From the NCBI GenBank assembly GCA_019454165.1, contig CP075367.1, positions 956,179 to 1,020,178 on the forward strand: a DNA stretch of 64,000 nt. Direction: 5' to 3'. Under the pieces are notes generated by a model. The model made no database searches and had not been told where the DNA came from. It worked only from the letters and a program-made list of their open reading frames with translations. Shown piece after piece: positions 13,760-46,404 of this stretch; the first letter of the stretch is position 1, and every line of letters starts with the position of its first letter. The stretch is from Anaerolineales bacterium (GTDB lineage Bacteria > Chloroflexota > Anaerolineae > Anaerolineales > UBA11579). The translations under genes and the position numbers were made by a program.

Positions 13760-15202
13760 TTACCTGCGCCCCAGGCTCATGAACGGGCTGGGGCGGCGGA
13801 CGGGCGCCTCGTGCCGCGGCGGGATGTAGCTGCTGGCGACGTGCAGCATCCAGGCCACCGCGTCGAGCGTGTCGTCGTGCTCACCGTCAGGCCAGCGCAG
13901 CCACTCCTCGCGGAAAGCGCGCAGGAAGGGAGTCTCGACATCCGCCACCCAGGCGCGGCCGCTTTGGAACAGCGGGGCCATGCCAGCTTCGAAGCGGCGG
14001 CCCTTGGTCTTGCCGCCCGGGTGCAGGCGCATCAGCGGCAGCCGGGAAGTGCGCAGTAGCAGGTGATAGAACTCCTCGCCTTTGCCTACCGCTTCGACCC
14101 CGATCATGTGGGTGGAGGGATAGCGCTCGGCGAGGGCGTGCAGCTGGTGCTCGGCTTCACCCTGGCTGATGCGAGCGCGGTAGCCATCCACCAGGATGAT
14201 GCCGCCGCCGGGTTTCAGGCGGCCGATGGCGACGGCGAAATAATCCCTCGTGCGGCCGCGCAGCGCATCCGCCGTGCTGGCATAGTCCACGCCCATCACC
14301 ACGGGCCAGTCCATATCGATCTTCTCGTGCGGATAGGGCTGCAGCCATTCGGGACGCAGGTGCAAACCTTCGGCGGCTTTGAGGTCGAGCAGGTACATGC
14401 GGGCGAATTCGGCTTCGCCGGTGAGTTGGCGCAGCTTGCGGATGCTGCCGGCCGGGAACTTGTGCGCCCACTGCGAGCGGCCGCGGCGCAGGATGGGCGT
14501 GCTGGCGGTCTTGAAGCGCCGGGTGGCGATCAGCGTGGCCAGCGCATCGTTGCTGCGCCACGGCGTGCCGACCACAAGCTGCCAAGTGTGCGGCGTCACC
14601 GTGGGCAGGATCGTGCCGGTCAGGATCTTGATGACGGTCTGCAGCTCGCGGGCTGAGCGAGTGTTGCTCTCGTCGTGAATGTCGTCAATGAGCAGTAAGC
14701 CAGTGGGGTGCTTGCCGATGATGGCGCGGGACTTATAGCCCAGGCCGAGCAGGGTGGGGTCTTTGCCCTTCTCCTGGGCGCAGAGGGCGCGCCAAGCGGC
14801 ATAGTCGCCCGTGGTGTCTTTGACCTCATAGCCGGCCGCGCCCCAGCTCACCTTGCGGTCAGGCTCCAGGTGGCCGAAGGCGGCCTTCCAGCCGGCGTTG
14901 TGCTGGATCAGTTCGGCCACCTGGGCGGCAGTGTCGCGGGCGGTCTGGCCGCCGGCCTGGATGATGAGATGGCTTTTGTGGGGCTGCTGGCCGATGCGGA
15001 AGGCGGTGAAGGCGATGCTGAGGGTGGTGGTCTTGCTGGAGCCGCGGAAGGCGGTCACCACCAGGCCTTTGCCGGCTGCGCGGGCGGCGTACAGCGGCCG
15101 GATCCAATCACGCATGGCGTGGGCGGGCAGCGCCCGTTGGTACAGCATGTAATAGAAGCGCGCGAACCCCTCTGCGCTGTCTGGCAGTGTGACCGTTTCC
15201 AT
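13760..15202 (-). CDS. Phage terminase large subunit (TerL)-like protein, intact
   Basis: 480 aa. Walker A-like VVTAFRGSSKTT and Walker B-like GLLLIDDIHDE. The C-terminal RNase-H-like nuclease signatures are VMGVDYAST...YFAVAIG...DGEHDDTLDAVAWM. SD is CAGGGGGAGAC-ATG. Confidence 0.8.
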   Translation of the reverse strand: METVTLPDSAEGFARFYYMLYQRALPAHAMRDWIRPLYAARAAGKGLVVTAFRGSSKTTTLSIAFTAFRIGQQPHKSHLIIQAGGQTARDTAAQVAELIQHNAGWKAAFGHLEPDRKVSWGAAGYEVKDTTGDYAAWRALCAQEKGKDPTLLGLGYKSRAIIGKHPTGLLLIDDIHDESNTRSARELQTVIKILTGTILPTVTPHTWQLVVGTPWRSNDALATLIATRRFKTASTPILRRGRSQWAHKFPAGSIRKLRQLTGEAEFARMYLLDLKAAEGLHLRPEWLQPYPHEKIDMDWPVVMGVDYASTADALRGRTRDYFAVAIGRLKPGGGIILVDGYRARISQGEAEHQLHALAERYPSTHMIGVEAVGKGEEFYHLLLRTSRLPLMRLHPGGKTKGRRFEAGMAPLFQSGRAWVADVETPFLRAFREEWLRWPDGEHDDTLDAVAWMLHVASSYIPPRHEAPVRRPSPFMSLGRR

Positions 15203-15209
15203 GTCTCCC

Positions 15210-15249
15210 CCTGTGGCTACAAAGAACGCGGTCTTTGTAGTACCACAGG
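15210..15249 (-). promoter_or_regulatory. Stem-loop in the TerL 5' leader overlapping its Shine-Dalgarno
   Basis: CCTGTGG-c-TACAAAGA / TCTTTGTA-gta-CCACAGG. On the mRNA the 3' arm (CCACAGG) runs into the GGGGGAG SD. Confidence 0.4.
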
Positions 15250-15312
15250 CTGGGTATACCGATGGGAAATGGCCGGGTGTATCAACCTGCTTGACGCTTC
15301 AAGTGAGCCTGG

Positions 15313-17457
15313 CTATTCGGTGATGCCCCAGATGGAGATCGAGGAGCGCGTGACAGCCACCAGGTTCATTCCATCTGTGGAGATACTCATGCCGCGGATG
15401 GTTTGGCCTACGTCTACACGCCCGATCTCTTCGAAGCCGTCAGTGGCATGGAAGCGGATCGTGCCCTCCTCGCAGGCCACGGCGATCAGAGATTTATCGG
15501 CAGAGATGCCCACGCCACTGATCTCACAATCGTAGGGAATGCGCTCGACTTCGGCATATTCGCCCAACCGTACGATCCAGACGTTCTGCGGGCCAGCAAA
15601 CCCCGTTTCCGAACGTGCGGGCGTGACCACGATGGTGCCATCCGGAGCGAAGGCGGGTTGCACACCGGGGCAATAGATGGTGAGCTTGTCCATCACCAAC
15701 TGCCAGCGGTCAGGGTTATGGATGTAGAAGTTGCCGTTGGACGCGCTGTTGCCGTTCTCTGCAACGCAGTAGGTATGCAGACCCCCATCTGGCGGCAGGA
15801 AGGCGTTGTCGAAAAGGCCAAGCCCCCATGAGCCATAGCCGCGTATGTACTTGGCCAGCAGCGTGCCGGTCTCGTAGTTGATGACGTACGATTCCACGAG
15901 GCGCGAGTCGCCCGCCACGATCAGCTCGTAGTACAGGATCTTGTGGTCGGTATCCAAAGCCACCGGGTATAGCACGGTGGATGAAGTGTCCTGGTAATCC
16001 GTGCTGTAGATGACCGGGAAGCGATCTGAATTGCCGTTGTAGATGACGAACTTTGAGCTCGTCAACTGGTAGGCATGGTATTTGCCATTGGCGGCGAACA
16101 TACCGGAGAGCTGGTCTGCATACCGGTAGCTGATCGGCAGGCGGGTGCCGTAACACACCATGCGCTGCAGTTCACTAAAGACACACTCCTTCGAATCCAT
16201 GCGGCCTATTTGCAGGAATAAGTTCTGGTTGCTGTATCCCCTGAAGAACAGCTCTTGATCCCAGGTGGCGTAGGAGCGCGGGTTGGTGATGAATTCGGGG
16301 CTGCCGTCCAGATGAAAGAACAGCTCGCGTCCGGCAGCTTCGACTCTGCGATTGTCCAGGCTGGTGCGGCTGAACAGGAACCAGCCTTCGGTGGGGCAAT
16401 GCCACATCGAAACCGCCCGCTCGCGGGTAGCGAGGTAGCGGTCATCCGGACTGAAGACGGGCTTGTTGCGCGGGCCGCCACCATCTCCACCCGTGCATTC
16501 GGGATGCAGGGTGTGCTCGATCTCGCCCGTTGCCAGGTCCCAGATGTTGAGCTCCACTTCCATGAAGGCAAACTTCTCTTCACTGTTGGAGAAGCCCCAG
16601 CTGTTGCCGCTGGCTTGGTAGGTCATGGGCCGGAACACGGGCCGAATGGTCAGGACGAGCTCCTCGGTGGTCAGATCCCACACGCGCAGGAAGTTATCGA
16701 TCTGGGCGGCAATGTATTTGCCATTGCGGGAAAGCTCTGGTGCATAGCCGTGAATGGCGGTGTAGCCGCCCAGCCACTCGTACGAGATCTCGTTGGTGTC
16801 CAGGTCCAATACAAAGAAGCGGCGTTGGGTGGAGAAGGCGAGCTGGTTGCTGTCTGCCGAAAGCGCCGCGGTGGCGTCTTGCATGTTGAATTCGCTGGTC
16901 AGGTCACGGATCTCTTTGGTTTGCAAATTGACCAGGAAGGTTTGATCCACCAGAGCCCAGACGCCGTCAGATGTGACCTGCAGGTCCATCTTGTAGGTCT
17001 GCCAATAGTATTCCGGAGAGAAATGGAACTCGTCTTGAGGATGTTTTTCGCCGTTCTCAAAGACGAACAAACCGTCAAAATCACGCACCAGCACCAGCTG
17101 GCCGTCCTGGGCCGTGCGCACGACGGAGTTGAGCTTGCCGGTGAAGTGGGCGACTTCGACGACATCGCCAATATTTTCGGCCGTGATGGGCTGCGCCAGT
17201 TTGGGGATGGACGAGCCCCAGCTCACCGGCAGCACCAGCGGGGTGGGAGTAGGCGTGGGGCTGGGAGTGGCGGTGGGAGTGTTGCTGGGCGCCGAGGTGG
17301 CGGTGGCAGTTGTTTCAGGTGTGAGGGTCGAGGCGGCTGGAGCGCTCTGGCAGGCTGCCAGCAGGACGCCCAGGATCAGCAAGGATGTGTGCAATCTCAC
17401 GAATTTCCTCCCGGTTGCAGAGTGCGTTCTTGGTTGATATAATTTACCACTGCTCAA
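15313..17457 (-). CDS. WD40/beta-propeller repeat lipoprotein
   Basis: Lipobox LGVLLAAC and a Pro/Thr-rich linker ([14 protein letters not shown]). Repeated motifs include [11 protein letters not shown]...[16 protein letters not shown] and [20 protein letters not shown]. Confidence 0.65.
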
Positions 17458-17499
17458 GGCCCTGCCACCGGTGGGGTCTTTTTAATGGGAAGACTAGCT

Positions 17500-19356
17500 A
17501 TGCAAACACCTCGTACTGATCTTAGAAACATTGCCATCATCGCCCACGTTGACCACGGCAAGACCACCCTGGTGGATGGTTTGCTGCGCCAGGCGCGGGT
17601 GTTCCGTGAGAACCAGCAGGTAGCCGAGCGGGTCATGGACTCAAATGACCTGGAGCGCGAGCGCGGCATCACCATCCTGGCCAAGAACACGGCCATCCAG
17701 ATCATTGACCCTGCCAGCGGGCAACCGGTCAAGATCAACATCGTCGATACGCCCGGCCATGCCGACTTTGGCGGTGAGGTGGAGCGCGTGATGAACATGG
17801 TGGACGGCGTGCTGCTGCTGGTGGACGCGGCCGAAGGCCCGCGCCCGCAGACCCGCTTCGTGCTCAAGAAGGCGCTGGAGATGGGGCTGCGCGCCATCGT
17901 GGTCATCAACAAAGTAGACCGCCGCGGGGCGGATGTGACCCGCACCCTCAACGAAACCTTTGACCTGTTCGTGGACCTGGGCGCAACGGATGAGCAAGCC
18001 GATTTTCCGGTCGTGTACGCCATCGGCACCGAGCAGCGCGCCGGCCTGACCCCTGACGTGGGGCCGGATCTGCAGCCGCTGTTCGAGACGATCTTGAAGG
18101 AAGTGCCGCCTCCCATAGTGGATGCGGACGCGCCGCTGCAGATGCTGGTCACCACCCTGGACTATGACAACTACCGCGGCCAGACCGCGATTGGCCGCAT
18201 TTTTGCGGGCCGCATGAAGGTTAACCAGCCTGTGGCGCGCCTGACCCAGGACGGCAAGAACCTGCCCGAAGTGCTGCGCTACCTGTATCTGCAGGATGGC
18301 TTGCAGCGGGTGGAAGTGCAAGAGGCCAGCGCCGGCGATATCGTCGCCGTGGCGGGGCTGGAAGGCATCGCCATCGGCGAGACCCTGGCCGACCGCGAGC
18401 ACCCGGTGGCTCTGCCCGGCATCACCGTGGAGGAGCCGACTGTGCGCATGGCCTTCGGCGTCAATACGTCGCCGTTCGCCGGCCGCGAGGGCAAGTGGGG
18501 CACCAGCCGCAAGCTGCGCGAGCGTTTGTACAACGAGCTGCGCAGCAACCTCTCGCTGCGGGTTGAGGATACAGACAGCGCCGACACCTTCATTGTGTCG
18601 GGCCGCGGCGAGCTGCACCTGGCTATTTTGATCGAGACCATGCGCCGCGAGGGCTTCGAGTTCCATGTAGCCCGCCCGGAGGTCATCCTCAAGACGGATG
18701 GCGAAGGCAACACGCTCGAGCCGTTCGAAGAAGTGCATATCGAGACCAGCCCGGAGAGTGCGGGCGTGGTGGTGGAGATGATGGGCAAGCGCCGCGGTGA
18801 GATGCAGCAGATGGTCGAAGGCCCTGGCGGCAGCACGCTGATGACCTTCGTTGTGCCGACCCGCGGGCTGCTCGGCTTCCGCCAGCAGTTCCTGACGGCG
18901 ACGCGCGGCCGCGGCATCATGAACACCATCTTCGCCGGCTACCGCCCGGTGGCGGGCGCCATCACCTCGCGCGCCCGCGGCTCGCTCATCGCCTATGAAG
19001 GCGGCACGGCCGTGACCTACGGCCTGCGCGCCGCCGAGGAGCGCGGCATCCTCTTCATCGGGCCTGGCACCGAGGTCTACGCCGGCATGGTGGTGGGCGA
19101 GCAGCCGCGTGAAGGCGACCTGGAAGTCAATGTGTGCAAGACGAAGAAGCTCACCAGCGTGCGGGCTGACAGCCGCGGCGAGATCGAGCAGCGCCTGACC
19201 CCGCCGCGGGTGATGAGCCTGGACGAGTGCATCGAACAGCTGGCTGACGACGAATTGCTGGAAGTGACGCCGGAGAGTCTGCGCATCCGTAAGAAGATCC
19301 TGGATATGCATGTGCGCGGCCGCGAGGCCAAGCGCGCCAAACTGGCCCTGGAGTAA
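17500..19356 (+). CDS. typA: Translational GTPase TypA/BipA
   Basis: [33 protein letters not shown] and NKVDR GTPase motifs. Full BipA-length architecture with C-terminal KKLTSVRA...RLTPP. Confidence 0.95.
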
Positions 19357-19388
19357 AAAAAGGGCGGCCATGTGGCCGCCCTTTTTTT
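19357..19388. terminator. Intrinsic terminator
   Basis: AAAAAAAGGGCGGCCA-tgt-GGCCGCCCTTTTTTT. Confidence 0.9.
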
Positions 19389-19502
19389 GTTCTAAGTTCA
19401 GATTGCCCGAGTTATTGCCCTAGTTTTAGTGCATTCTTTATCAGGAGCAGTGCAGTGCGTAGCAGGATGCGCCAGCGCTGGGTGAGAGTAAGCTGTTGCC
19501 AG

Positions 19503-19883
19503 TTATTCCTTAGTTCGTTTAGATTGGCGAGCTCGTCTTGCTTTTGGTTTTTCATGTCCCGCTTTCAGCATAGTTTCGGCCGAAGCCAGTAGTTGCTGCT
19601 GTTGCTCGCTGGTGAGGCGTCCCCAGTTTCGAGCAATAAAACGGAGCTTTGGGTCAGGGTCTTGCAGGCCCAGGATCTCGTAGATCTCCGGCCCAAGTCG
19701 TTGGGCAAGTTTGCCCACGTTCTCCGCAGTTGGCTTGCGTAGCCCGTTCAAGTAATGACTTAACAATGGCGCCGAGATGCCAAGATGCTCGGCAAATTGG
19801 GCCAGTGTGGCGCGTTTGCCGCGCTGGCCCTGCCATTCCAGATATTTTTGTTCCAGCCAAGCTGGAAAAGCCAAAGCTTCCAT
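19503..19883 (-). CDS. HTH (XRE/phage-repressor-like) DNA-binding protein with basic tail
   Basis: From ATG 19883: MEALAFPAWLEQKYLEWQGQRGKRATLAQFAEHLGISAPLLSHYLNGLRKPTAENVGKLAQRLG. The C-terminus is KPKARRARQSKRTKE. The gene is visibly less GC-rich than its neighbours. Confidence 0.6.
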   Translation of the reverse strand: MEALAFPAWLEQKYLEWQGQRGKRATLAQFAEHLGISAPLLSHYLNGLRKPTAENVGKLAQRLGPEIYEILGLQDPDPKLRFIARNWGRLTSEQQQQLLASAETMLKAGHEKPKARRARQSKRTKE

Positions 19884-20009
19884 TTTTTCGCGTGTGTGTC
19901 CTCTTCGTTCGTTGGCACAACCCCTTTCTGCCTGGTCATTAGACAATAGTTGACGTCATCTGCGTGTATAAGTAATATACTCCCTGTTAACCACACAGGT
20001 GGGTTTCTT

Positions 20010-20777
20010 ATGAAGTTTCTCAAGATCACTGCATTTCTGGCCATTATTGCATTTTGCGCATGGGCGTTGTGGACCGGGCAACAATCGCCGCGGCCTACGG
20101 TGATCGCGGCTGTGCCCACGGCGGAGTGTGCTGCGCAGCACTTGCCGGCGGAGTATCACGCCCTTGGCTCGGCGCTGCGCGAGTTTGATGATGCGCTCAA
20201 CCTGGCCATCAGCGTGCCGCGTGACATGGTGATCGCCCAGGTGGAGCAGTTGCAGCGCGTGCGCCGCGAGGTTGAGGCGGCCCAGGTGCCGGCCTGCCTT
20301 GAGGCGTACCGGGCCAGTGTGGTGCGTTATATGAACCGTGTGGTCGATCTGCTGGTGGCGTTTGTCGCCGGGGCAGCTCCCAGCCAGATCTCGGATGCGT
20401 TGTTCGGCGCTACTGACTTGCGCCAGGAGATCTTTGCTGAGATCACATTGCTGACCGGTATCAGCCCCACGCCGTATCCGACCGCGGTTCCGTTGGCATC
20501 GGCTACGCCTGAAGCTGCGGTAGGCATCCCGGTCACTGGGGCACCCCAGGCCGCGCTGGCCCTGGTGACGCACGCGGATGGCGTAAATTTGCGTGAAGGG
20601 CCGGGGGTCAATTACACCTTTTACATCGTAGTGGGGGCGGGCAGCCAGCTGCCTGTTTTGGGGGTGGATGCCAGCCGGCAGTGGCTCAAAGTACAGGTCA
20701 ACGAGCAGGAAGGTTGGGTGTTCCTGCCTCTGGTCGAGCTCAATTTACCCGTAGAAAGCCTGCTTGTGCTCGAATAG
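20010..20777 (+). CDS. Membrane-anchored protein with C-terminal SH3b domain
   Basis: ATG 20010 gives MKFLKITAFLAIIAFCAWALW (TM anchor). The C-terminus VNLREGPGVNYTFYIVVGAGSQLPVLGVDASRQWLKVQVNEQEGWVF is bacterial-SH3-like. Confidence 0.6.
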   Translation: MKFLKITAFLAIIAFCAWALWTGQQSPRPTVIAAVPTAECAAQHLPAEYHALGSALREFDDALNLAISVPRDMVIAQVEQLQRVRREVEAAQVPACLEAYRASVVRYMNRVVDLLVAFVAGAAPSQISDALFGATDLRQEIFAEITLLTGISPTPYPTAVPLASATPEAAVGIPVTGAPQAALALVTHADGVNLREGPGVNYTFYIVVGAGSQLPVLGVDASRQWLKVQVNEQEGWVFLPLVELNLPVESLLVLE

Positions 20778-20802
20778 CCTTACATTTTTGAAATTTACTC
20801 CT

Positions 20803-20831
20803 TGACAACTTTCTAAACTGTTAGTAGATTT
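20803..20831 (+). promoter_or_regulatory. Sigma-70-type promoter (TTGACA-17-TAGATT)
   Basis: TTGACA at 20803-20808, a 17-nt spacer, and TAGATT at 20826-20831. It lies ~80 nt upstream of ATG 20914. Confidence 0.55.
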
Positions 20832-20913
20832 CAGGTAACAATTCTGTTAGGTGACCAGCCGCCTGGGGAACTTTCGCTGCTGCCTTCCGGGGGTCACACA
20901 TAAAGGGAGAACT

Positions 20914-23565: not shown

Positions 23566-23581
23566 CTCCGCAACACGAAAC

Positions 23582-23611: not shown

Positions 23612-23615
23612 GTTT

Positions 23616-37962: not shown

Positions 37963-38322
37963 ATGCACGGGGGAAATACGAGTGACGGCGCGGACACCGC
38001 GCCACAGTCTGCTGGCATTGGCGCCAGTAAAAAGCAACAGCGCATCGCTGATCTGGTGAAGGAGCAACTGCACGGCCAGCTAAAGGAGGAGCTGGAGCAG
38101 GCGCTCGAAGCGCGCCTGGCGCAATGGAGCGCGCCAGCCGCCCCGGCTGGCGCCGAGCCCGGCCGCGCCAGCCGGGTGATCCCACCCGGCGGCGCGGGAG
38201 CGCCGGCGCCTGACCTGCGCGAGGAGTACGCCCGCCGCCTGGGCGCACTGCGCCCGGGCGACCTAGCGGCGGTGCTGGAGCTGAAGCGCGAATTCCGCAA
38301 GCGCGGGCTGGAGGTGTATTAG
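37963..38322 (+). CDS. Scaffolding-like protein (small, helical, immediately upstream of the capsid gene)
   Basis: SD AAAGGGGGAAGT precedes ATG 37963. 119 aa, charged/helical (QQRIADLVKEQLHGQLKEELEQALEARLAQW) with an Ala/Pro-rich middle. The function is inferred from position only. Confidence 0.45.
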   Translation: MHGGNTSDGADTAPQSAGIGASKKQQRIADLVKEQLHGQLKEELEQALEARLAQWSAPAAPAGAEPGRASRVIPPGGAGAPAPDLREEYARRLGALRPGDLAAVLELKREFRKRGLEVY

Positions 38323-38388: not shown

Positions 38389-39519
38389 ATGGCAATTTAC
38401 GATGGAATGAAGACAACCTACGCGGATACTGCCGCCCAGGCGCGTGCCATCAGCGATGTGGTGCAGATGATCGACCCGCGCGACACTCCGCTGCTGGCGC
38501 GGCTGGGGTTGGACAGCGCTCGCGAGAAGTTCAAGATCCGCATGAACGGGAACAAGGTCGAGCTGCTCGAAGACGAGCTCGACCCGCTGGTGACCGCCGC
38601 CAACAACGGCGAGACCATCGCGGTGGGCGACACCAGCTTTGTGGTGGCGGACGCCTCGGTGTTCCAGGATGGGCATGTGATCCTGATCGATGCCGAGTAC
38701 ATGGTGGTCAAGAGCGTGGACCTGGGCACCAACACGATCACGGTCTACAGCCGCGCCTATGGCGGCACGAACGCCACGCACGCGGCCAACGCGCCGATCC
38801 ACATCACCGCCATGGCACGCCTGGAGGGCGACGATGCCGACTACGGGCCGCTGGTGGCGTTGAACGTTCCGTTCAACTACACCAGCATCTTCCAGAAGGC
38901 GGTGCAAGTCAGCGGCACGCAGCAGGCCATCAGCCAGTACGGCATCGAGGATGAGTTCCAGTACCAGGCCAACAAGGCCGTGCCGCACTTGCTGCGCCTG
39001 GTGGAAGGCGCAGCCTTCCACGGCGTGCGGGCGGCTGGCTCCGCCAGCACGCCGCGCTCCACGGGCGGGCTAGGCGCCTTCATCACCAACAACGTGGTGG
39101 ATGCGGGCGGCGCCATCGCCAAGGCGGATGTCGACAGCCTGATGGAAGAGATCGTGATGGATGGGGGCAACCCGGACCTGCTGGTGATGAACCCGCGCGT
39201 CGCCAATGATCTGCGCGGCCTGCTGGACAACAGCACCTTCGTGCGCGTGGGCCAGGGCGAGCACAAGCTCGGCCTGGACGCGATCGAGCGCGTAGTCACG
39301 CAGTACGGCGAGCTGGAACTGGTGATGGATCGCTGGTGCCCGGTGCACACCGCCTATGTGCTGGAGAGCGGCAAGGTGGGCTTCTACACGTTGCGCGGCT
39401 TCGAGGCCAAGGAGCTGGCCCGCTCGGGCGACAGCCTGAAGGGCGAAGTGGTGGGCGAGCTGAGTTTGCTGGTGGCCAACAACAAGGCCCACGGCAAGAT
39501 CACCGGCATCACTACGTAA
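38389..39519 (+). CDS. Phage major capsid protein (HK97 fold, SU10/DUF5309-like family)
   Basis: 376 aa. The N-terminal block ISDVVQMIDPRDTPLLARLG...KVELLEDELD matches the I..I.P.DTP....G....EW.ED.L signature I associate with this MCP family. SD is ACAAGGGGGATGA-ATG. Confidence 0.8.
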   Translation: MAIYDGMKTTYADTAAQARAISDVVQMIDPRDTPLLARLGLDSAREKFKIRMNGNKVELLEDELDPLVTAANNGETIAVGDTSFVVADASVFQDGHVILIDAEYMVVKSVDLGTNTITVYSRAYGGTNATHAANAPIHITAMARLEGDDADYGPLVALNVPFNYTSIFQKAVQVSGTQQAISQYGIEDEFQYQANKAVPHLLRLVEGAAFHGVRAAGSASTPRSTGGLGAFITNNVVDAGGAIAKADVDSLMEEIVMDGGNPDLLVMNPRVANDLRGLLDNSTFVRVGQGEHKLGLDAIERVVTQYGELELVMDRWCPVHTAYVLESGKVGFYTLRGFEAKELARSGDSLKGEVVGELSLLVANNKAHGKITGITT

Positions 39520-39735: not shown

Positions 39736-40563
39736 ATGTCGTACACGTTCAGTGAGTTGCTTCAAGACGCCTATACCGAATTGGGCCAGCTGCGCCGCGG
39801 CCTGGCCAGCGGCGGCAGCGCCAGCACGCTGGCGGATGCCGCCGAGCTGGCCGGCCAGTACCGCGAGGATGACTGGAAGGGCGGCGCGCTGTTCCTGGCG
39901 GCGGGCGGCATGCCGCCCGCCGGCGAGTTCGCTCGCGTGGTTGGCTTCGTCGCCAGCAGCGGCACGCTGGCGCTGGGCAGCAGCCTCAGCGAGCCGGTCG
40001 AGGCCGGCATGGCCTATGGGCTGGCCTCGGCGCAGTACCCGCTCGCCACCATGATCGAGCTGGCCAACAGCGGCCTGCGCGGCCTTGGGGATGTGCCCCA
40101 GGTCGACGAAGATGTGCTGCCCTCCAGCGCCCACACGCTGGCCTGGGCGCGCCGCCGCCCGCTGCGCATCGATTATCTGGCGGTGCCCGGTGTGAGCGCC
40201 GGCGACCCGTGGCGCACCTTGCATGATTGGGATTTTGTGCCCGCCGCGCCCGGCTCGCCCGGGATGGTGTTGTTCGCCGACCCGCTGCCGGCCGGGCGGC
40301 CGCTGCGCGTGTGGTACCTGGCCGCCCATCCGCGCCTGGCCGCGCATGGTGATGTGCTCGCCGAGGCGGTGGCGCCCGAACTGGCCGTGGCCGCCGTGGC
40401 CGAGCGTGCCCTGCGCTGGCAGTGCGCCCGCAAAGGCGGTGACGAAAAGCTGGCCCTGCTGTGGCAGGAGGCGGTGGAGGAGCTGCAAGCCGCCCGCCGC
40501 CGCTTCCCGATCTGGCGGCCGCAGCGCCCGGCCCGCCTGCTACGCCTGCGGGGGCAGGCGTGA
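39736..40563 (+). CDS. Virion-associated protein, adaptor / tail-tubular-A-like by position
   Basis: SD ACAAGGGGGATGT precedes ATG 39736. 275 aa with no recognisable motif. The function is inferred from its position after the MCP and before the large protein. Confidence 0.4.
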   Translation: MSYTFSELLQDAYTELGQLRRGLASGGSASTLADAAELAGQYREDDWKGGALFLAAGGMPPAGEFARVVGFVASSGTLALGSSLSEPVEAGMAYGLASAQYPLATMIELANSGLRGLGDVPQVDEDVLPSSAHTLAWARRRPLRIDYLAVPGVSAGDPWRTLHDWDFVPAAPGSPGMVLFADPLPAGRPLRVWYLAAHPRLAAHGDVLAEAVAPELAVAAVAERALRWQCARKGGDEKLALLWQEAVEELQAARRRFPIWRPQRPARLLRLRGQA

Positions 40564-43109
40564 GTGTGCGCGTCTACGCCGGGGCCAGCGTCGCCAGCCA
40601 CGAACTCAGCCTGAGCGATGGCGTGCTGACCTGGGGCTTGCGCTTGGAGGGCGGGGCGCAGGGCATCAAGGAGAGCGTGCTGACACCCTCCGGCTTGCGG
40701 CTCAACTGGGTCAGCGGCTTCGGCGCCTGGGAGCCGGGGCTGGCCCAGGTCGAGCAGCGTGATTGGAGCGGCGGCCGCGGCGCGGCCCGCTTCAGCACGC
40801 AGGCCGCCCGCCGCTTCTACGACAGCCAGGACGCCTGGACCCTGACGCCGGGCCGAGTACATGCCACGCCACAGTGGCGCTATGCCAGCGGCCTGCGTAC
40901 CGCGGCCCAGCGCCTGCCGGGCGATGTGCGCTGGCAGGCGCTGATCGGCGCGCAGCGCAGCCTGGCGGCCGCGTTCAGTGTGGCTGCCGGCGGCCTGGCT
41001 GCGAAGCAGGCGCGGGTCTGGCTGCGCCGGGTGGGTTCGCCCGGGCAGCTGACGCTGCAACTGCACGCGGATGCGGCCGGGCAGCCGGGTACGGTGCTGC
41101 CCGGCTCCACCAGCGCCATCACGCAGGCGGATGTTGGCGATGTCATCAGTCAGTTGCGCAGCTTCGATGTCTCCGGCTACAGCACGCCGCTCAGCGCGGG
41201 CAGCTATCACCTCTCGCTGCACGGGGCCGCGGCGGACAATGCCAGCAATCACTGGGAGATCGGCGTGCAGCGGCGTGCCAGCGGCGGGCACAGCTCGCCG
41301 GATGGCAGCGCCTGGACGGCCACCGAGTTTTGCGCCTACTACCGCGTGCAGGATGCGGATATCCCGCGCACCTTCCTGTTCTTCGAATTGCGCGGCGTGC
41401 TGTACGCGGTGGACCAGCGCGCCAATGGCAACGCCTCGCGCGTGTACATGAACGGCGAGCGCGGCGTCGCCACCAGCGGGGCGGCCGCCACGCTGAGCGA
41501 CACGAACCGCAACTGGCCGGCCGATCAGTGGGCTGGGGCATGGGTACGTATCCTGGCCGGCAAAGGGGCCGGGCAGGCGCGGCGCATTCTTTCGAACACG
41601 GTCAGCGTGCTCAGCGTGGCCGCCTGGGATCTGGCGCCGGACAGCACGTCTGAGTACATCATCTACGCCACGCCGCACTGGCGGGATGTTTCGCCGAGCT
41701 CGGGCGACCAGATCGATGGCACGGTGCGGGACGTGAGTGTGCTCAACGGGCAGGCGCTGTTCGCCCAGGGCTCCAGTGTGCCGATCCTGCGCATGCGTTT
41801 CAACGCCGGAGCTTCACCGCCCAAGCACGAATTTCTGGATGATGGCAGCAACACCGCCGACCTCCTGCATGTCTTCCAGCACAGCGAGCTTGGCCCGCAG
41901 GTGTGGCGCGGTGTGGCCAGCAATGCTCAGCTTTCGCGGGCCGCGCCGGCCGGCTGGCTTACGCCGCTCAGCTTCGGCACGGCGATCCAGTTGGGCGCGG
42001 ACGGCCAGGCGCTCCACAAGCTGTTGGATTTCAACGGCCAGCTGTGGGGCGTCAAAGCCAACAGTCTATGGATCGTTGAGCGCACTGAGCATGTTGCCCG
42101 CCACAACCTGGGGCTGGAGGCGTTTCCGCAACTGAGCGGCGGGCAACCGGCGCGGGTGTGGGAGGACAAGCTGTGGCTGGGCTGGGGCTGCAGCCTGCTG
42201 GTGACTGGCGGCAGCGGCCTGGCCGACGTTGGCCCGGGCCGCGGCGAGGGGCTGCCTGCCGGCCGCGGCGGCCGGGTGGAGGCGCTGGTGCCGCTGGGCG
42301 CTGGCCGCATGGCGGCCGCCATCGACGCCGGAGATGGGCATTCCAGTGTGATGGTGTGGGATGGCGAGGCTTGGCATGAGCTGCTGCGCGCCCCGCGGGC
42401 TGGCGAGCGCATCCGCGGCCTGTACTGGCAAAGCTGTCCGGGCAGCACGCCGCGGCTGTGGGTGGAGATGGGCGGTGAGCTGGCGTATGTGCAGCTACCC
42501 GCCTATGGCGAAAACCCGCTGGGCGATGCGGATCTGCAATACCAGCACGAGGGTGTGCTGGTAGGCAGCACTATCGATATGGAGGCCACGCTGCTGCCCA
42601 AGTTCCTCACCCAGCTCAGCCTCGTGAGCCGCAACCTGGGCGAAGGCGCACAGGTGGAGCTGGACTATCAGGTGGATGGTGAGATCGGCGGGCCGCGCTG
42701 GCGCCAGGCCGGCGGCTTCTACTCCTCGCCGCTGGATACGCTGACGCTGAACACGGGCGAGATCTCCGCCTTTCGCCCGCGCCTGCGCTTGCTCAGCCAG
42801 CGCGCCAGCAAACCGGCCACCGTGGAGGCGACCCAGCTGGAAGGCTTTGCGCGTACGCCGCAGAAGTACCAGTGGGAGCTGCGCGTGCGCCTGGGCGAGT
42901 TGCAGCTGGATGGCGGCGGCGGGCTTGACCCGGCGCCGGCGGCCTTCCTGGCCTGGCTGCGGCGGGTGGCGCGCAGCGCCGCCCGCATCCACCTGCGCTC
43001 CGTGTGGAGCGCGTTGGATGACACCTACGTCATCGTCGAGGCGCCCAGCCTGCAACGCGAGCTGGACAGCGAGGGCGGCGTGGCGGTGGTGAAAGTGCGC
43101 GAGGGATAA
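40560..43109 (+). CDS. Large virion-associated protein (849 aa), nozzle / tail-tubular-B-like by position and size
   Basis: GTG 40560 overlaps the preceding stop (GTGA) and follows GGGGG by 5 nt. The protein is beta-rich and repeat-like. The ORF-track start at 40461 would overlap the previous gene by 100 nt. Confidence 0.45.
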   Translation: MSVRVYAGASVASHELSLSDGVLTWGLRLEGGAQGIKESVLTPSGLRLNWVSGFGAWEPGLAQVEQRDWSGGRGAARFSTQAARRFYDSQDAWTLTPGRVHATPQWRYASGLRTAAQRLPGDVRWQALIGAQRSLAAAFSVAAGGLAAKQARVWLRRVGSPGQLTLQLHADAAGQPGTVLPGSTSAITQADVGDVISQLRSFDVSGYSTPLSAGSYHLSLHGAAADNASNHWEIGVQRRASGGHSSPDGSAWTATEFCAYYRVQDADIPRTFLFFELRGVLYAVDQRANGNASRVYMNGERGVATSGAAATLSDTNRNWPADQWAGAWVRILAGKGAGQARRILSNTVSVLSVAAWDLAPDSTSEYIIYATPHWRDVSPSSGDQIDGTVRDVSVLNGQALFAQGSSVPILRMRFNAGASPPKHEFLDDGSNTADLLHVFQHSELGPQVWRGVASNAQLSRAAPAGWLTPLSFGTAIQLGADGQALHKLLDFNGQLWGVKANSLWIVERTEHVARHNLGLEAFPQLSGGQPARVWEDKLWLGWGCSLLVTGGSGLADVGPGRGEGLPAGRGGRVEALVPLGAGRMAAAIDAGDGHSSVMVWDGEAWHELLRAPRAGERIRGLYWQSCPGSTPRLWVEMGGELAYVQLPAYGENPLGDADLQYQHEGVLVGSTIDMEATLLPKFLTQLSLVSRNLGEGAQVELDYQVDGEIGGPRWRQAGGFYSSPLDTLTLNTGEISAFRPRLRLLSQRASKPATVEATQLEGFARTPQKYQWELRVRLGELQLDGGGGLDPAPAAFLAWLRRVARSAARIHLRSVWSALDDTYVIVEAPSLQRELDSEGGVAVVKVREG

Positions 43110-43203
43110 GACCCCGAGTGACCAGGGAGCAGCAATGAGTGAGCAGCAACCAGTAATCAGTGAGCAGTAATCGGTGAGCAGGTACAGGTCTGCTGAGCAC
43201 GGA

Positions 43204-43259
43204 TCACTGATCCCTAATCCCTAATCCCTAATCCCTAATCACTGATCCCTGTTCACTCT
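43204..43259. repeat. Heptamer tandem repeat: (TCCCTAA)x4 flanked by TCACTGA/TCCCTGT/TCACTCT variants
   Basis: Four perfect TCCCTAA units at 43211-43238 and about 8 related units in total. The upstream half of the spacer (43110-43200) carries the inverse words (CAGTGAGCAG x4). Confidence 0.85.
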
Positions 43260-43287: not shown

Positions 43288-43713
43288 ATGTACAGTTTTA
43301 TCTACAACGCCGGCAAGCTGGCTTTGCTGAAGGGCGAAGTGCAGCCGCTGGCGCATACGTTGCGGGCGGCGCTAGTGACAGATGCATACCTGGCGAACAA
43401 AGATGCGCATGCCGTCTTTGCCGACATCAGCCATGAGGTGACCGGCACCGGTTACACCGGCGGTGGCAAAGCGCTGACCGGTGTCACGCTGGTGCAAGAC
43501 AACGCCAATGACCGCGCCGCCTTGAAGGCCGACAATGTGGTGTGGAGCGTGGGGGCGTTCACGGCGCGGGCGGCGGTGCTCTACAAGGACACCGGGAACC
43601 CGGCCACCAGCCCGCTGCTGGCCTATATGAACTTTGGCGGTGACCACACCGTGAGCGGCGACGACTTCAATCTGGAATGGAGCCCCGAGGGCGTCATCTA
43701 CCTCGGCGAATAG
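43288..43713 (+). CDS. Conserved phage-like structural protein (141 aa)
   Basis: MYSFIYNAGKLALLKGEV...ALVTDAY...HEVTGTGYTGGGKAL...DNVVWSVGAFTARAAVLYKDTG resembles a small protein family I have seen in podophage structural modules. Its function is unknown. Confidence 0.5.
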   Translation: MYSFIYNAGKLALLKGEVQPLAHTLRAALVTDAYLANKDAHAVFADISHEVTGTGYTGGGKALTGVTLVQDNANDRAALKADNVVWSVGAFTARAAVLYKDTGNPATSPLLAYMNFGGDHTVSGDDFNLEWSPEGVIYLGE

Positions 43714-43716
43714 GCG

Positions 43717-45084
43717 ATGGCTACTTGGATCGAAGGTTTCCTGGAAAGCGAGAGCGAGCTGGCTCGCCTACCGGTGGTGACGCGCAGCGCCCATTCCACC
43801 CACTTTGAGCTGGGGGCGGGCGTGCAGCGGGCGGTCATCACCACCGCGCCGCAATACTTCCGCAGCCCGCAGGGCTGGCAGGCCTATGACCTGCAGCTGC
43901 GCGCCGATGCGGCCGCCCGCTGGGGCGCGCCGGGCGCCCCAGCACGCCTGGCCGCCGACGGCAGCGTGTGGCTGGGCGAGTACCAGCAGCACACGCGCAG
44001 CGTGGGCGTGTTGGTGGATGAGGCGTACACGCCGCTCTGCACGCTGCCCGAGGGCCGCGTGGCCGGCCCACGCTTGGTGCGCGAAACCAGCCCCTTCCGC
44101 CATGAGCTTTTGCTGACCGAGGATGGCGTCAAGGAGGAGCTGCATATCGCCAGCCTGCCGGATGGCCTGGAGGGTGGCTACCTGGTCTACGAGACCCACA
44201 GCCGCGGCGCGCGCCTCGGCCTCAGCTTTTCGCCCGGCAGCTCGATGGATGCGGCCGGCCGGGCCTGGCCGCTATATCGCTTCGAGGTCGGCGGCGTTAC
44301 CTACACCGGCCTGGCAGCCGAAGATCTGGCGCGGGCGGAGTTCCCGCTGGTGATCGACCCCACCGTGTCGTACGCTTCTGCCGGAGATGGCACCATCACC
44401 GGCTATTCCGGCAGCTACACCACCGCGCACACCACCTCGGTTCACTTCGATAGCGGGGCGGCCGAGCTGATCGTCGGCCAGGCGTTCGATACCGGCATCC
44501 CGCGCTTCTACATGTTCCGGGCCGCCATCAAGTTCAGCCTGGCGTCGCTGAATCCGTTGGCGGTCATCTATGCTGCCAACCTGCGCATGGTGTGCACGAT
44601 GGACGAGTCGACGCTGGCTGACTTCGGCGTGCAGATCGTCAAGCACAACTGGGCCGCCCAGGACCCGCTGACGAATGGCAACCGCGAGGCGGTGTTCGAT
44701 GCCTGCCTGGCGGGGACTACCGATGCGGTGTGGAAGAACACCAGCGCCATTACGGTGAATACGCAATACACCAGCGCGCCGCTGGATGTCAACTGGTTGA
44801 CGCCGGGCGGCACGGTGTACTACAGCCTGCGCAGCAGCCGGGATGCGGCCGGGGTGATCCCGCCCGCCAACGGCAACGAGTACGTACGCCTGGGGGCCGG
44901 GGCGCACAGCAACGTGAACCGCCGCCCGGCGCTAATCGTGGACTACTTCGCCGTGCCGAGTGCGGCCGGCAAGCTGGCTCAACCCAGCCCGCGCGTGCGC
45001 ATTGAGGATACGCGCATCAAGCTGCGCGCCCGCCGGCGCAAGACCTTGCTTGATGCGCGCAACAGGGGGAATGATGGCAGATAG
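43717..45084 (+). CDS. Fibre/receptor-binding-like structural protein (455 aa)
   Basis: It starts 3 nt after the preceding stop. It is beta-rich and ends in a basic tail. The function is inferred from position. Confidence 0.4.
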   Translation: MATWIEGFLESESELARLPVVTRSAHSTHFELGAGVQRAVITTAPQYFRSPQGWQAYDLQLRADAAARWGAPGAPARLAADGSVWLGEYQQHTRSVGVLVDEAYTPLCTLPEGRVAGPRLVRETSPFRHELLLTEDGVKEELHIASLPDGLEGGYLVYETHSRGARLGLSFSPGSSMDAAGRAWPLYRFEVGGVTYTGLAAEDLARAEFPLVIDPTVSYASAGDGTITGYSGSYTTAHTTSVHFDSGAAELIVGQAFDTGIPRFYMFRAAIKFSLASLNPLAVIYAANLRMVCTMDESTLADFGVQIVKHNWAAQDPLTNGNREAVFDACLAGTTDAVWKNTSAITVNTQYTSAPLDVNWLTPGGTVYYSLRSSRDAAGVIPPANGNEYVRLGAGAHSNVNRRPALIVDYFAVPSAAGKLAQPSPRVRIEDTRIKLRARRRKTLLDARNRGNDGR

Positions 45085-45403
45085 TGCAGTCTGGCTGATC
45101 GACAGCCCGGTCAGCATGCTGGCCGGCGAGCAGATCGCCTACAGTGTGGATTGGCAGGGCGCCACCAGCGTCAGCGCGCCGCACGCCACGGTGTACCGCA
45201 ACGGGGCCGACATCACCGCCGAGGCGATGGACGCCGGCGATGCGCATGTGATCACCGGCAGCGTGCTGACGCTTAAAAAGCTACGCGCCCTCGATGCCGA
45301 TGGGGGCGCGCGCTATGTGGTGCTGATGGGTGCGCTGGTGGACGGCAACCAGGAGCGGCGTAAGCTGCTGGTGCAGGTCGTCTCGGCCAGTGCAGAAAGC
45401 TAG
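45071..45403 (+). CDS. Small beta-rich protein (110 aa) ending the plus-strand structural string
   Basis: ATG 45071/45074 directly follows AGGGGGA and overlaps the previous gene by 14 nt. The product begins MMADSAVWLIDSPVSMLAGEQIAYSVDWQG. Confidence 0.45.
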   Translation: MMADSAVWLIDSPVSMLAGEQIAYSVDWQGATSVSAPHATVYRNGADITAEAMDAGDAHVITGSVLTLKKLRALDADGGARYVVLMGALVDGNQERRKLLVQVVSASAES

Positions 45404-45567
45404 GGTTTCGACACTTGCTTGTAACGCATGTAGGCGGTTGCCATCGCCCAGGCCAGCAGGCCGGCGATGCAGCCAAGCACAAGGTTGTCTCGGATCAGGC
45501 CAGTGCCTACGCCAACGCCCAGCCCGAGCCAGATCGCCTGGCGGCTGTTCATCTCGATAGGCTTCAT
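45400..45567 (-). CDS. Small membrane protein (55 aa, Gly-zipper)
   Basis: Below the ORF-track length cut-off. My translation is MKPIEMNSRQAIWLGLGVGVGTGLIRDNLVLGCIAGLLAWAMATAYMRYKQVSKP. It shares a palindromic CTAG stop with the plus-strand gene. Confidence 0.45.
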   Translation of the reverse strand: MKPIEMNSRQAIWLGLGVGVGTGLIRDNLVLGCIAGLLAWAMATAYMRYKQVSKP

Positions 45568-45569
45568 GG

Positions 45570-45839
45570 CTACTTCTGGCTGGCCGAGCCGGCCGCGCCG
45601 AAGGCCGCGCCCAGCGCAACGCCGATGGCGATGCCCATGCCGATATTGTCCGTCGCCACGCCAATGGCGACGCCCAGGGCAAGCCCGGTGGCCAACGAAA
45701 CCGGGAAGGTGTTGGCGCTACCCTTCTTGGCTTCCGGCTTCTTGGCGGCGCTCTTGGTTACAGGCTTCTTGGCCGCGGTCTTCTTGGCAGCCGGTTTGGC
45801 GGTCTTCTTGGTGGTGGTCTTTTTCTTTGCGTTAGCCAT
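45570..45839 (-). CDS. Small protein with Lys-rich N-terminus and Gly-zipper TM C-terminus (89 aa)
   Basis: SD GAGGAGAT precedes ATG 45839. The product is MANAKKKTTTKKTAKPAAKKTAAKKPVTKSAAKKPEAKKG...LATGLALGVAIGVATDNIGMGIAIGVALGAAFGAAG. Confidence 0.55.
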   Translation of the reverse strand: MANAKKKTTTKKTAKPAAKKTAAKKPVTKSAAKKPEAKKGSANTFPVSLATGLALGVAIGVATDNIGMGIAIGVALGAAFGAAGSASQK

Positions 45840-45888
45840 TTTCTCGATCTCCTCATCGGGATTGTAGTGCATTTTGAAGGGGGAAACT

Positions 45889-46095
45889 ATGGATACGGAT
45901 ATGCGTGTACTGTTCGAAGCGATCAATGCCTTGGGGGTAGTTGGCCTGCTGATGTTCATGGTGCTGGCGTTCTACCGAGGTGACTTGATCGCCCGCAACC
46001 TGCTCGACCGCATCTTGAGCTTGTATGAGGAGCAGCTGGACCAACTGAGCCAGCGCATTCTTGCCAAGTTGGAGGAGGTGATGAAGAAAGACTAG
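45889..46095 (+). CDS. Holin-like small protein (1 TM + charged coiled C-terminus)
   Basis: SD GAAGGGGGAAACT precedes ATG 45889. The product is MDTDMRVLFEAINALGVVGLLMFMVLAFYRGD...EEQLDQLSQRILAKLEEVMKKD. Confidence 0.45.
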   Translation: MDTDMRVLFEAINALGVVGLLMFMVLAFYRGDLIARNLLDRILSLYEEQLDQLSQRILAKLEEVMKKD

Positions 46096-46152
46096 GAATG
46101 GGAGTTGATCGGAGATGGTCTGGTCTTGATCGTTGATCTTTAGGGGGGAACT

Positions 46153-46404
46153 ATGGAACAAGCATTGTATTGGCTGACCGGCGCGCTGGGCGTGCCGTTG
46201 GTGAATTGGCTCAAAGCCCGCTACGGCCTGCAGGGCCGCGCCGCCATGTGGCTCACCACCGCCGTGGCGGCGCTGCTGGGCCTGGCGGCCGCGCTGCTCA
46301 GCCGTGAGCTTGCGCCGGGCAGCCTGCAGCCGGAGGGGCTGCTGGCTGCCTTCGGCCAGGTGCTGGCCGCCGCCACGCTGGCCTACAAGCTGCTGGCGGA
46401 GTAG
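46153..46404 (+). CDS. Holin-like small membrane protein (83 aa, 2-3 TM)
   Basis: SD TAGGGGGGAACT precedes ATG 46153. The product begins MEQALYWLTGALGVPLVNWLKARYGLQGRAAMWLTTAVAALLGLAAALL. Confidence 0.45.
   Translation: MEQALYWLTGALGVPLVNWLKARYGLQGRAAMWLTTAVAALLGLAAALLSRELAPGSLQPEGLLAAFGQVLAAATLAYKLLAE

Follow-up and report, generated by a model that had tools for sequence, protein, structure and literature searches.

A chromosomally dispersed, podovirus-derived set of virion and packaging genes in Anaerolineales as a candidate gene transfer agent-like element

The 64 kb stretch of DNA analyzed here (the window) is a high-GC (about 0.63) segment of a bacterial chromosome from an Anaerolineales bacterium, and it carries the virion and packaging genes of a tailed phage at separate loci among cellular genes. 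These element genes are intact, vertically inherited, and under purifying selection. They are best explained as the virion-and-packaging module of a short-tailed (SU10-like) phage whose parts are now ordinary chromosomal genes. Judged from sequence features, the module is probably an anciently domesticated particle system that was derived from a podovirus and resembles a gene transfer agent (GTA). Domestication of this kind had been proposed in the original prediction, which was made from the window alone, and it is supported by the gene identities, the loci shared with relatives, the ratios of nonsynonymous to synonymous substitution rates (dN/dS), and the recurrence of the split layout; GTA function is the putative role that these features suggest. 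The region around the major capsid protein (MCP) gene is 99% identical to JAHBVE010000001.1 (930 kb; Anaerolineales bacterium ACE_CHL7), and an exact copy of the large terminase (TerL) protein was also found on an independent Logan assembly (L001). All genomes compared were metagenome-assembled genomes (MAGs).

TerL is encoded by an intact gene that matched terminase families in both PHROGs and Pfam (Table 1). Its Walker A (FRGSSKT) and Walker B (LLIDD) motifs, the GTP coupling motif, and the nuclease Asp were invariant in 24 aligned homologues, in agreement with the predicted assignment. The product of a second intact gene, predicted to be the portal, had no match in Pfam, PHROGs, NCBIfam, or a PDB profile search. 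An AlphaFold2 model built from a 22-sequence alignment (pLDDT 69, pTM 0.65) was compared with the PDB using Foldseek, and the 40 best matches were all phage portals, led by the SU10 portal 7z44 (E 1e-8); structure, not sequence, thus identifies this protein as the portal. Among the homologues of TerL (n = 419, identity 96–45%), the portal (n = 184, 96 to 44%), and the MCP (n = 531), nearly all those with a named source came from Anaerolineales/Chloroflexota MAGs, and some of the element homologues lay on contigs of 0.2–4.4 Mb. Several TerL homologues measured 553–630 amino acids (aa) (P0021, P0051, P0078, P0104–P0106, P0109, P0110, P0117), and the best local alignment of these long homologues covered only about half of the query. 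This suggests that some TerL lineages carry an insertion of 100–150 aa, possibly an intein.

The remaining virion genes form a structural string. The predicted MCP was confirmed by its Pfam and PDB matches (Table 1), and it is strongly constrained in size: among 531 homologues, the best 120 clusters (95 to 70% identity) included 110 with a length of 376 or 378 aa. Immediately upstream of the MCP gene, in 21 loci, lies an open reading frame (ORF) whose position suggests a scaffold protein; its start is backed by a Shine-Dalgarno sequence (AAAGGGGGA) and by the promoter footprint described below. A 275-aa gene follows the MCP gene in 20 loci, and an 849-aa gene is conserved in 17. In short-tailed phages, adaptor and nozzle genes follow the capsid genes. 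The 275-aa protein is 35% identical to the gene of podovirus MW202608.1 that precedes its nozzle-position gene, and the 849-aa protein is 38% identical over 98% of its length to the 882-aa protein of that phage. The starts originally predicted for both proteins agreed with the onset of homology, and the adaptor and nozzle roles are those indicated by gene position and by homology to MW202608.1. A PDB profile search with the 849-aa protein was empty, and its single-sequence AlphaFold model (pLDDT 34) was unusable. The 178-nt spacer after the nozzle-position gene consists mostly of short tandem repeats (43116–43181, 43210–43250), including ~6 copies of the heptamer ATCCCTA (telomere-like CCCTAAT).

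Downstream of this spacer, a 141-aa protein (p141) was found in 10 loci. It is followed by a 455-aa protein that shows 63% identity where its neighbours show 83–95%, and that has only weak homologues in L013 and L019 (loci of relatives are given L numbers throughout). A Laminin_G_3 protein occupies its position in L036, and the 455-aa protein may be a fibre or receptor-binding protein. The next protein (p110) was found in 17 loci and is 40% identical to the MW202608.1 gene after the nozzle. Between p110 and the transmembrane (TM) proteins, L017, L020–L023, and L036 carry a GH25 lysozyme. In the window, the ORF called at this place (45415–45867) is probably spurious, and its opposite strand (45570–45839) encodes an 89-aa, Lys-rich, glycine-zipper membrane protein where the relatives carry GH25. 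Two holin-like proteins close the string. As predicted, both have TM segments, and these point to putative holin roles. The 73-aa protein is conserved in L005–L008, L012, and L013, and the conserved genes of the string end with that for the 83-aa protein (p83), found in 15 loci with 50–98% identity.

The hallmark phage genes are uninterrupted yet non-contiguous, as originally described: their ORFs are intact, and plainly cellular genes lie in between. Pfam backed the identification of these cellular genes as TypA/BipA, a rhomboid protein, a dioxygenase, GNATs, a nirK-like protein, and a transporter, and further recognized GGDEF proteins, an HD-GYP protein, PolX, and PEPCK in the window. Three loci had been placed within 13760–46404, and all three stand; a fourth locus, a small XRE-type helix-turn-helix (HTH) gene, lies outside that range and is assigned to the element because its homologue directly precedes TerL in L003, L004, L021, and L022. 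Together, the four loci span 44.4 kb, and the nearest phage genome measures 41.8 kb. The claim that the phage-like genes have the same GC content as the host genes did not hold: the element lies ~4.5 points above its flanks (0.669 vs. 0.622). The GC at third codon positions of the phage-like ORFs is host-like.

Scans of ~53 window ORFs against Pfam, PHROGs, and NCBIfam recovered no integrase, recombinase, replication, or lysogeny module, and the window contains no tRNA gene and no bracketing direct repeats or att-like sites. The predicted lack of integrase, att-like repeats, replication genes, and endolysin in 64 kb is thus matched by negative family scans and a negative repeat search. Genes for tRNA were also considered as a recurrent integration site and rejected, given that Pro, Ile, and Glu genes occurred at three loci and none at others.

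Because the source is itself a MAG, the arrangement could be a chimera of phage and host contigs made during assembly or binning. We regard this as hardly credible, since the junctions recur elsewhere and the synonymous divergence (dS) of the element matches that of host genes. Specifically, Logan contig L001 repeats the window junction GGDEF-TerL-WD40, the 856 kb contig of TGS_CHL6 (L002/L025) is split four ways as in the window, and L005–L008 share the portion from the ABC transporter to the string. Since these assemblies are independent and come from different species, the split is not an assembly artefact, and the chimeric assembly that the original prediction had named as a concern is excluded. 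The same prediction expected domesticated loci to be found again in related genomes under constraint; the same loci stand in the same chromosomal contexts in L002/L025 and L005–L008, with dN/dS of 0.03–0.30.

Across relatives, eight different layouts were seen, ranging from ~14 kb contiguous to 167 kb apart. The most compact, in L019, is a near-contiguous cluster of ~14 kb with TerL, portal, rpsU (reversed), scaffold, MCP, adaptor, nozzle, p141, fibre, p110, a TM protein, and p83. It ends at a tRNA-Ile gene, has a frameshifted TerL, and is not strain-specific. Its flanks carry an Eco57I-type methylase, Fic, DUF302, and a methyltransferase, and no integrase, replication, or repressor-integrase module was found there in Pfam, PHROG, and NCBIfam scans. 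The L019 cluster looks like the ancestral layout rather than an att-flanked prophage. L003 and L004 share the order HTH-TerL-GGDEF-GGDEF-portal even though they are distant from each other (GGDEF orthologues 42–45% identical, TerL and portal 70–72%). In one of these two genomes, the complete 4.43 Mb chromosome OY776212, portal and MCP string are 167 kb apart; in the other, KQH61, the string is inverted and 7.7 kb away from the portal. Insertions of 1.3–3.1 kb interrupt the string in L008, L012, L013, L014, L020, L026, and L028, and the MCP is separated from adaptor and nozzle in L009 and L025.

Two further observations concern these layouts. The gene for ribosomal protein S21, rpsU, lies divergently ~1.2–1.7 kb upstream of the MCP in L012, L019, L021, L022, L036, and L037 and also near the MCP in L014 and L027; in the window (50966–51274), as in the rest of its clade, it lies ~4.5 kb past the end of the string. 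It could be either a host anchor of the ancestral insertion or a retained phage-borne S21. L011 and L013, from one MAG (ERP124720_co1_127), are two MCP loci that are 86.5% identical, which reflects either two element copies or a mixed bin.

Pairwise dN/dS values (Nei-Gojobori) were calculated against five related species (Table 1). In each comparison dS was equal for element and host genes, at ~0.2 for L005, 0.4–0.7 for L008, and 0.5–1.0 for L006/L007; since the two match, the element and the chromosome diverged together. The MCP evolves about as slowly as typA (94 vs. 91% in L025/L002, 79 vs. 79% in L009). Element GC tracks flank GC (r = 0.95 over 14 loci with flanks of 41–62%) and is consistently ~4.5 points higher. 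TerL and portal distances also co-vary (Mantel r = 0.85, 19 contigs, 0/5000 permutations).

These values bear on whether the genes could be a non-functional fossil, that is, scattered prophage debris that has yet to degrade. L021 retains only fragments of TerL, portal, and adaptor and has no nozzle, and frameshifts occur in several MAGs: TerL is split in L019 (3847–5374) and L022 (173–1589), and the adaptor in L007 (11398–12261) and L022 (11234–12090). Some of these frameshifts are plausibly MAG or long-read errors. A fossil is nonetheless very improbable in view of core-gene dN/dS of 0.03–0.18 at substantial dS, ORFs that are intact across hosts of 41–66% GC, the almost invariant length of the MCP, and conserved promoter footprints.

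True phage relatives of the element were few and consisted of MW202608.1 (a Manatee Spring podovirus, 41.8 kb) and six IMG/VR contigs. MW202608.1 has the order TerL-portal ... scaffold-MCP-adaptor-nozzle-p110, and so shares TerL, portal, the 275-aa and 849-aa proteins, and p110 with the element in the same order, whereas identities to this podophage are low (29–40%; TerL 29%, portal, the gene after TerL, 35%, nozzle 38%). The IMG/VR contigs showed 33–44% identity for the portal, 35–53% for TerL, and 62% for one MCP. The likeness to SU10/Kuravirus-type podophages extends to the MCP, which falls in SU10_MCP and matches 7z45, and to the portal model with 7z44 as its best fold. In a neighbor-joining tree based on distance methods and midpoint rooting, 112 non-viral (chromosomal/metagenomic) portals formed one clade that excluded the six viral portals. 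TerL adjoins the portal in the viral relatives, and an 8–9 kb block with a LysM/M23 protein and a 2156-aa protein, the latter conserved among the viral contigs, lies between portal and scaffold. This ~8 kb block with the 2156-aa protein was absent from every chromosomal locus fetched. The phages also carry lysis, replication, and regulatory modules. An M23 peptidase after the portal is kept in L036 and absent from the window's clade. In L025 (TGS_CHL6), the place of adaptor and nozzle directly after the MCP is taken by a Gly/Thr/Ser-rich protein of 3122 aa (11422–20790) that apparently has a signal peptide; it was considered as a relative of the 2156-aa phage protein and found to be unrelated.

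The existence of phage relatives (portal 33–44%, TerL 29–53%, one MCP 62%), the contiguous L019 cluster ending at tRNA-Ile, and the GH25 and M23 lysis-type genes kept in some lineages would fit an ordinary prophage or temperate phage family that integrated repeatedly and was broken up by morons and rearrangements. We consider this improbable. Integrase, repressor-integrase module, replication genes, and att repeats are missing from the window and from the L019 flanks, and essential single-copy host genes stand between the parts (typA here, rpsU in relatives). Moreover, the interrupted layout is common to species at dS 0.4–1.0, the genes are cross-species rather than strain-specific, loci lie as far as 167 kb apart in OY776212, and the chromosomal portals are monophyletic against the viral ones.

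The small HTH gene and its surroundings offered candidate control elements for the dispersed loci. The family comprises 98 representative clusters, and Pfam HTH_3 matched 13 of 58 aligned members; the window's own protein had no Pfam or PHROG match. Its true start is probably a GTG at codon 16 (about 2384). The gene was considered as a small terminase (TerS), and this was rejected because the family is XRE/HTH_3-like; the protein is instead a candidate SOS-controlled XRE-type regulator of the element. A perfect palindrome of the LexA type, AGAAC-N4-GTTCT, lies just upstream of it and is the sole match in 64 kb, even when one mismatch is allowed. All four of the other loci that have the gene (L003, L004, L021, L022) carry a perfect box 14–26 nt upstream of it. 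A version with one mismatch, AGAAC-N4-GTGCT, overlaps a −10-like GTGCTAT and precedes the scaffold ORF by 33–65 nt in seven lineages (L012, L014, L019, L020, L023, L037, and L017, where it overlaps the called ORF start). It also occurs 256 nt upstream of the scaffold in L022 and directly before the adaptor gene in L026, in which that gene is split off from the MCP. The LexA motif in Firmicutes and Actinobacteria is GAAC-N4-GTTC, and variants have been reported for Chloroflexi (Fernandez de Henestrosa et al. 2002, as cited in PMC4951493).

In the relatives, a gap of 270–450 nt with a conserved terminator-like hairpin separates the small gene from TerL. The GC-rich hairpin CCCCTGA(A/C)CGCCYWTCAGGGG, usually followed by a T-run, stands between the two genes in four lineages (L003 6451–6469, L004 6722–6740, L021, and L022) and is absent from the window, in which 11 kb separates them. 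A role of the hairpin in termination or antitermination is possible.

A second motif was found by footprinting the scaffold promoter in six genomes (window, L005, L006, L007, L008, L025), which share a conserved 15-bp dyad, GTCCARCRGCTTGAY. On its 3' side, the window copy (GTCCAGCAGCTTGAC) is followed by a conserved −10-like GTGCTAT block and then by the AAAGGGGGA Shine-Dalgarno sequence. When the window was scanned with the scaffold-only pattern at no more than two mismatches, seven matches were obtained vs. 1.15 expected, and two of these were correctly oriented upstream of the HTH gene (63 nt) and TerL (79 nt). The TerL site (GTCAAGCAGGTTGAT) is kept at 14/15 positions upstream of TerL in L002 despite a diverged surrounding spacer. 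The generalized pattern GTCMAR-N3-STTGAY also precedes the scaffold gene in L009, L011, L014, and L016, and in L013 it precedes the split adaptor. The significance of the operator is partly post hoc, save for the scaffold-derived scan and the new sites in L009 and L011. A loose palindrome skeleton with two mismatches gave 77 matches and was rejected as too permissive in GC-rich DNA, so only the stricter patterns were used. The recurrence of the LexA-type box and the dyad operator upstream of the dispersed loci suggests that these loci could form one SOS-linked regulon.

Genes of cyclic di-GMP (c-di-GMP) turnover (GGDEF, HD-GYP) adjoin element loci in roughly half of the independent loci, including the window (7817–11437, 47579–49186), L003/L004 (8.2–9.9 kb), L014, L016, L022, and L028. 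The GGDEF pair between TerL and portal is conserved in two distant genomes, although the orthologues are only 42–45% identical. These genes may be functionally linked to the element, or their presence may simply reflect the abundance of signalling genes. An Rfam scan for riboswitches such as those for c-di-GMP found no family.

Taken as a domesticated particle system, the element would have arisen when an ancestor within Anaerolineales captured the phage module, after which the selfish functions would have been lost and the remainder inherited as chromosomal genes. Even now, the gene products would assemble into a short-tailed capsid that is filled with DNA. Such a particle could not carry its own genome, because the genes are dispersed among essential host genes and lack integrase and replication functions, and its cargo would instead be host DNA, as in a gene transfer agent. 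Host stress signalling would coordinate expression through the LexA-type SOS box at the HTH gene and, in most lineages, also at the scaffold-MCP operon. DNA damage would relieve LexA repression, the HTH regulator would be made, and the dispersed loci would switch on together; in the window, the 15-bp dyad GTCMAR-N3-STTGAY precedes the HTH gene, TerL, and the scaffold operon by 63–79 nt. TerL would then fill heads through the portal, and holin-mediated lysis would free the particles.

Several observations weigh against this scheme. No TerS was recognized among the ORFs upstream of TerL in the phages and loci compared, and the TerL-adjacent gene in relatives is XRE-like. The window's clade is without the GH25 lysozyme of the string, and no other endolysin was recognized in it. 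The ejection-protein block of the phages is missing, and DNA delivery may therefore differ from that of a phage. Adaptor and nozzle are assigned from position and from homology to phage genes that are themselves unannotated, and LexA binding at the boxes is suggested by motif similarity. The portal promoter of the window is without the full dyad and shares its TTGACA part only. Finally, some lineages show decay or frameshifts (L021, L019 TerL, L007, L022), and cultured Anaerolineae species were absent from the top matches. On the first of these points, a helical protein of 139–162 aa is encoded immediately upstream of TerL in L019 (3388–3807), and its homologue in L004 (14053–14541) is encoded 2.4 kb downstream from the portal of OY776212. 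This protein, which only L019 and L004 shared and which has no homologue in the window, is a small-terminase candidate.

The lack of a recognizable TerS, of an endolysin in the clade, and of the phage ejection block leaves room for a domesticated particle with a purpose other than transfer, such as a PBSX-like SOS killer or defective phage, a lysis and DNA-release device for the biofilm matrix, or an altruistic abortive response, in which heads might package DNA incidentally. Here, the SOS-type box and XRE-type regulator resemble the control of defective prophages, loss of the ejection block speaks against an efficient delivery of DNA, the fibre-like gene is fast-evolving, and c-di-GMP genes recur beside the loci. 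Nevertheless, the strict conservation of the portal and of the catalytic residues of TerL means that selection acts on DNA packaging, and the phage-like bacteriocins that are known come as contiguous clusters of tail or myovirus origin. We therefore consider a non-transfer particle somewhat unlikely, although killing and transfer are indistinguishable at the sequence level. PBSX-type elements sit in the chromosome without propagating, are SOS-inducible under an XRE-type repressor, fill their particles with host DNA, and persist across a host clade. In PBSX the genes form one contiguous, myovirus-like cluster that encodes a contractile tail, whereas the element is podovirus-like and dispersed, and no sequence homology between them was found.

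The preferred reading, a GTA-like system, can be compared with GTAs already described, namely RcGTA and CcGTA of Alphaproteobacteria, BaGTA, VSH-1 of Brachyspira, Dd1 of Desulfovibrio, and VTA of Methanococcus. The element resembles them in consisting only of packaging, structural, and candidate lysis-type genes, in its chromosomal location, in vertical inheritance, and in purifying selection. The genomic signature of GTAs is packaging and structural genes only, at multiple loci up to hundreds of kb apart, with repeated origins from different phages (PMC11841831), and the element, with several loci that can be far apart, fits this signature. In VSH-1, blocks of non-GTA genes come between those for the head, the tail, and lysis (Stanton et al. 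2009, as cited in PMC11841831). This divided gene set is like that of the element, but ancestry, morphology, and host differ, and dispersal here is lineage-variable and reaches 167 kb. Control of RcGTA-type systems involves SOS/LexA and c-di-GMP (PMC6473078, PMC9143464), with RcGTA itself regulated by c-di-GMP (PMC9143464). Control of the element may likewise be host-side, given its LexA-type box and dyad operator, although CtrA/GafA act on RcGTA and a LexA box with an XRE-type HTH protein is proposed here. There is no sequence relationship to RcGTA, whose ancestor was a siphovirus and not a short-tailed SU10-like phage, the tail genes of the element are podovirus-like, and Pfam and PHROG scans gave no matches to tail-tube or tape-measure genes, which places the element outside the RcGTA family with its HK97-type siphovirus genes. 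It further differs from known GTAs in having no identified TerS and in its host phylum, Chloroflexota.

No report of a GTA or of such an element in Chloroflexi/Anaerolineae was found in the literature searched, and a search for DUF5309 likewise returned nothing relevant. It is possible, and we suggest it tentatively, that Chloroflexota here has its first GTA-type system. The domestication of an SU10-like podovirus would then be independent, ancient, and spread over much of Anaerolineales, with dispersed loci that form one SOS-linked regulon (LexA box, XRE-type activator, shared dyad), possibly tuned by c-di-GMP, and with particles that move host DNA in filamentous communities that form biofilms and flocs, as in activated sludge, anammox reactors, and sediments. 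GTAs outside Alphaproteobacteria have been only cursorily characterized, the full gene complements of VTA and VSH-1 are open, and the main obstacle to recognizing GTAs in genomes is the lack of further examples (PMC11841831). The element would add a clade-wide, sequence-defined candidate from a different phylum and phage morphotype, with explicit core genes and candidate operators. The layout series, from contiguous to 167 kb, documents a prophage dissolving into the chromosome. Anaerolineales are abundant in wastewater and sediment, where a host-owned DNA-packaging particle would bear on horizontal gene flow. Element genes are also easily miscalled as prophages, with a bearing on 'viral' signals in metagenomes and on MAG curation, and the predictions made here are directly testable in metatranscriptomes, viromes, and enrichment cultures.

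Table 1. Features of the window, with strand, basis of assignment, and pairwise dN/dS.
Feature	Position	Strand	Basis	dN/dS
Small XRE-type HTH protein (fourth locus)	2004–2429	−	Homologue directly upstream of TerL elsewhere	
LexA-type box, perfect palindrome AGAAC-N4-GTTCT	2430–2443	.	Just upstream of small HTH gene	
Candidate dyad operator GTCCAGTGGCTTGAC	2492–2506	−	63 nt upstream of annotated HTH start; 1 mismatch to scaffold-derived pattern	
TerL, intact	13760–15202	−	phrog_38 (2.3e-56); Pfam Terminase_6C	
Candidate dyad operator GTCAAGCAGGTTGAT	15281–15295	−	79 nt upstream of TerL; 2 mismatches to scaffold-derived pattern	
TypA/BipA	17485–19356		Pfam	
Rhomboid	24092–24772		Pfam	
Portal, intact	25345–27075	+	AlphaFold2 model and Foldseek	0.18
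Dioxygenase	27301–28077	−	Pfam	
Cupredoxin/multicopper (nirK-like) protein	28850–30364		Pfam	
Transporter (substrate-binding protein, 2 permeases, ATPase)	31847–36046		Pfam	
Candidate dyad operator GTCCAGCAGCTTGAC	37885–37899	+	64 nt upstream of scaffold ATG; six-genome footprint	
Scaffold-like protein, 119 aa, Ala/Pro/charged-rich, conserved C-terminus	37963–38322	+	Position	
MCP, SU10 family	38389–39519	+	Pfam SU10_MCP (4e-63); PDB SU10 head protein 7z45	0.03–0.09
275-aa protein, adaptor position	39736–40563	+	Homology, gene order	0.09–0.14
849-aa protein, nozzle position	40560–43109	+	Homology, gene order	0.06–0.15
p141, 141-aa virion-module protein, phrog_644	43288–43713	+	PHROG (9.5e-33)	0.08–0.10
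455-aa fast-evolving protein, candidate fibre/receptor-binding	43717–45084	+	Divergence, position	0.15–0.30
p110, ~110-aa conserved protein, tail-end module	45071–45403	+	Conservation	
73-aa holin-like protein, N-terminal TM and coiled coil	45874–46095	+	TM prediction	
p83, 83-aa holin-like protein, two TM segments	46153–46404	+	TM prediction	0.07–0.21
Flanking host genes				0.01–0.45

Between the loci, the window region 19000–25350 has a lower GC (0.56–0.58). It contains a fast-evolving SH3-domain protein (19950–20777; 53% identical in L002) and a fast-evolving 904-aa protein with beta-helix, NosD, and TSP3 repeats (20851–23565) that showed a weak tail-spike PHROG match (E 8e-4). A C-terminal fragment of the latter is matched in L009 between MCP and typA; the whole protein could be a tailspike that has become detached, or it could belong to the cell surface. 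A DpnI-like restriction endonuclease ORF of the Dam-replacing family (24805–25350, minus strand) abuts and overlaps the portal start, and L002 has a Fic gene in its place; the site upstream of the portal seems to collect defence and toxin genes. Four 30-nt palindromes (AAAAAGGGCGGCCATGTGGCCGCCCTTTTT), 80–97% alike, lie directly 3' of typA (19357–19386), the beta-helix gene (23582–23611), the rhomboid gene (24774–24803), and the ABC ATPase gene (36063–36092) and look like a repeated family of bidirectional terminators.

WD40/PD40 propeller proteins stand beside the element in the window and in L036; they were considered as parts of it and left out of the parts list because the two copies are not detectably homologous. 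The minus-strand dioxygenase and GNAT genes are each followed by a copy of a 60-nt repeat, and the two copies are 70% identical (27193–27252 and 28262–28321). Lys/Ala-rich, histone-H1-like tracts were observed on the minus strand at 13002–13730, 45570–45839, ~51530–51617, and ~63020–63112, and the membrane protein just downstream of TerL carries such a tract at its C-terminus.

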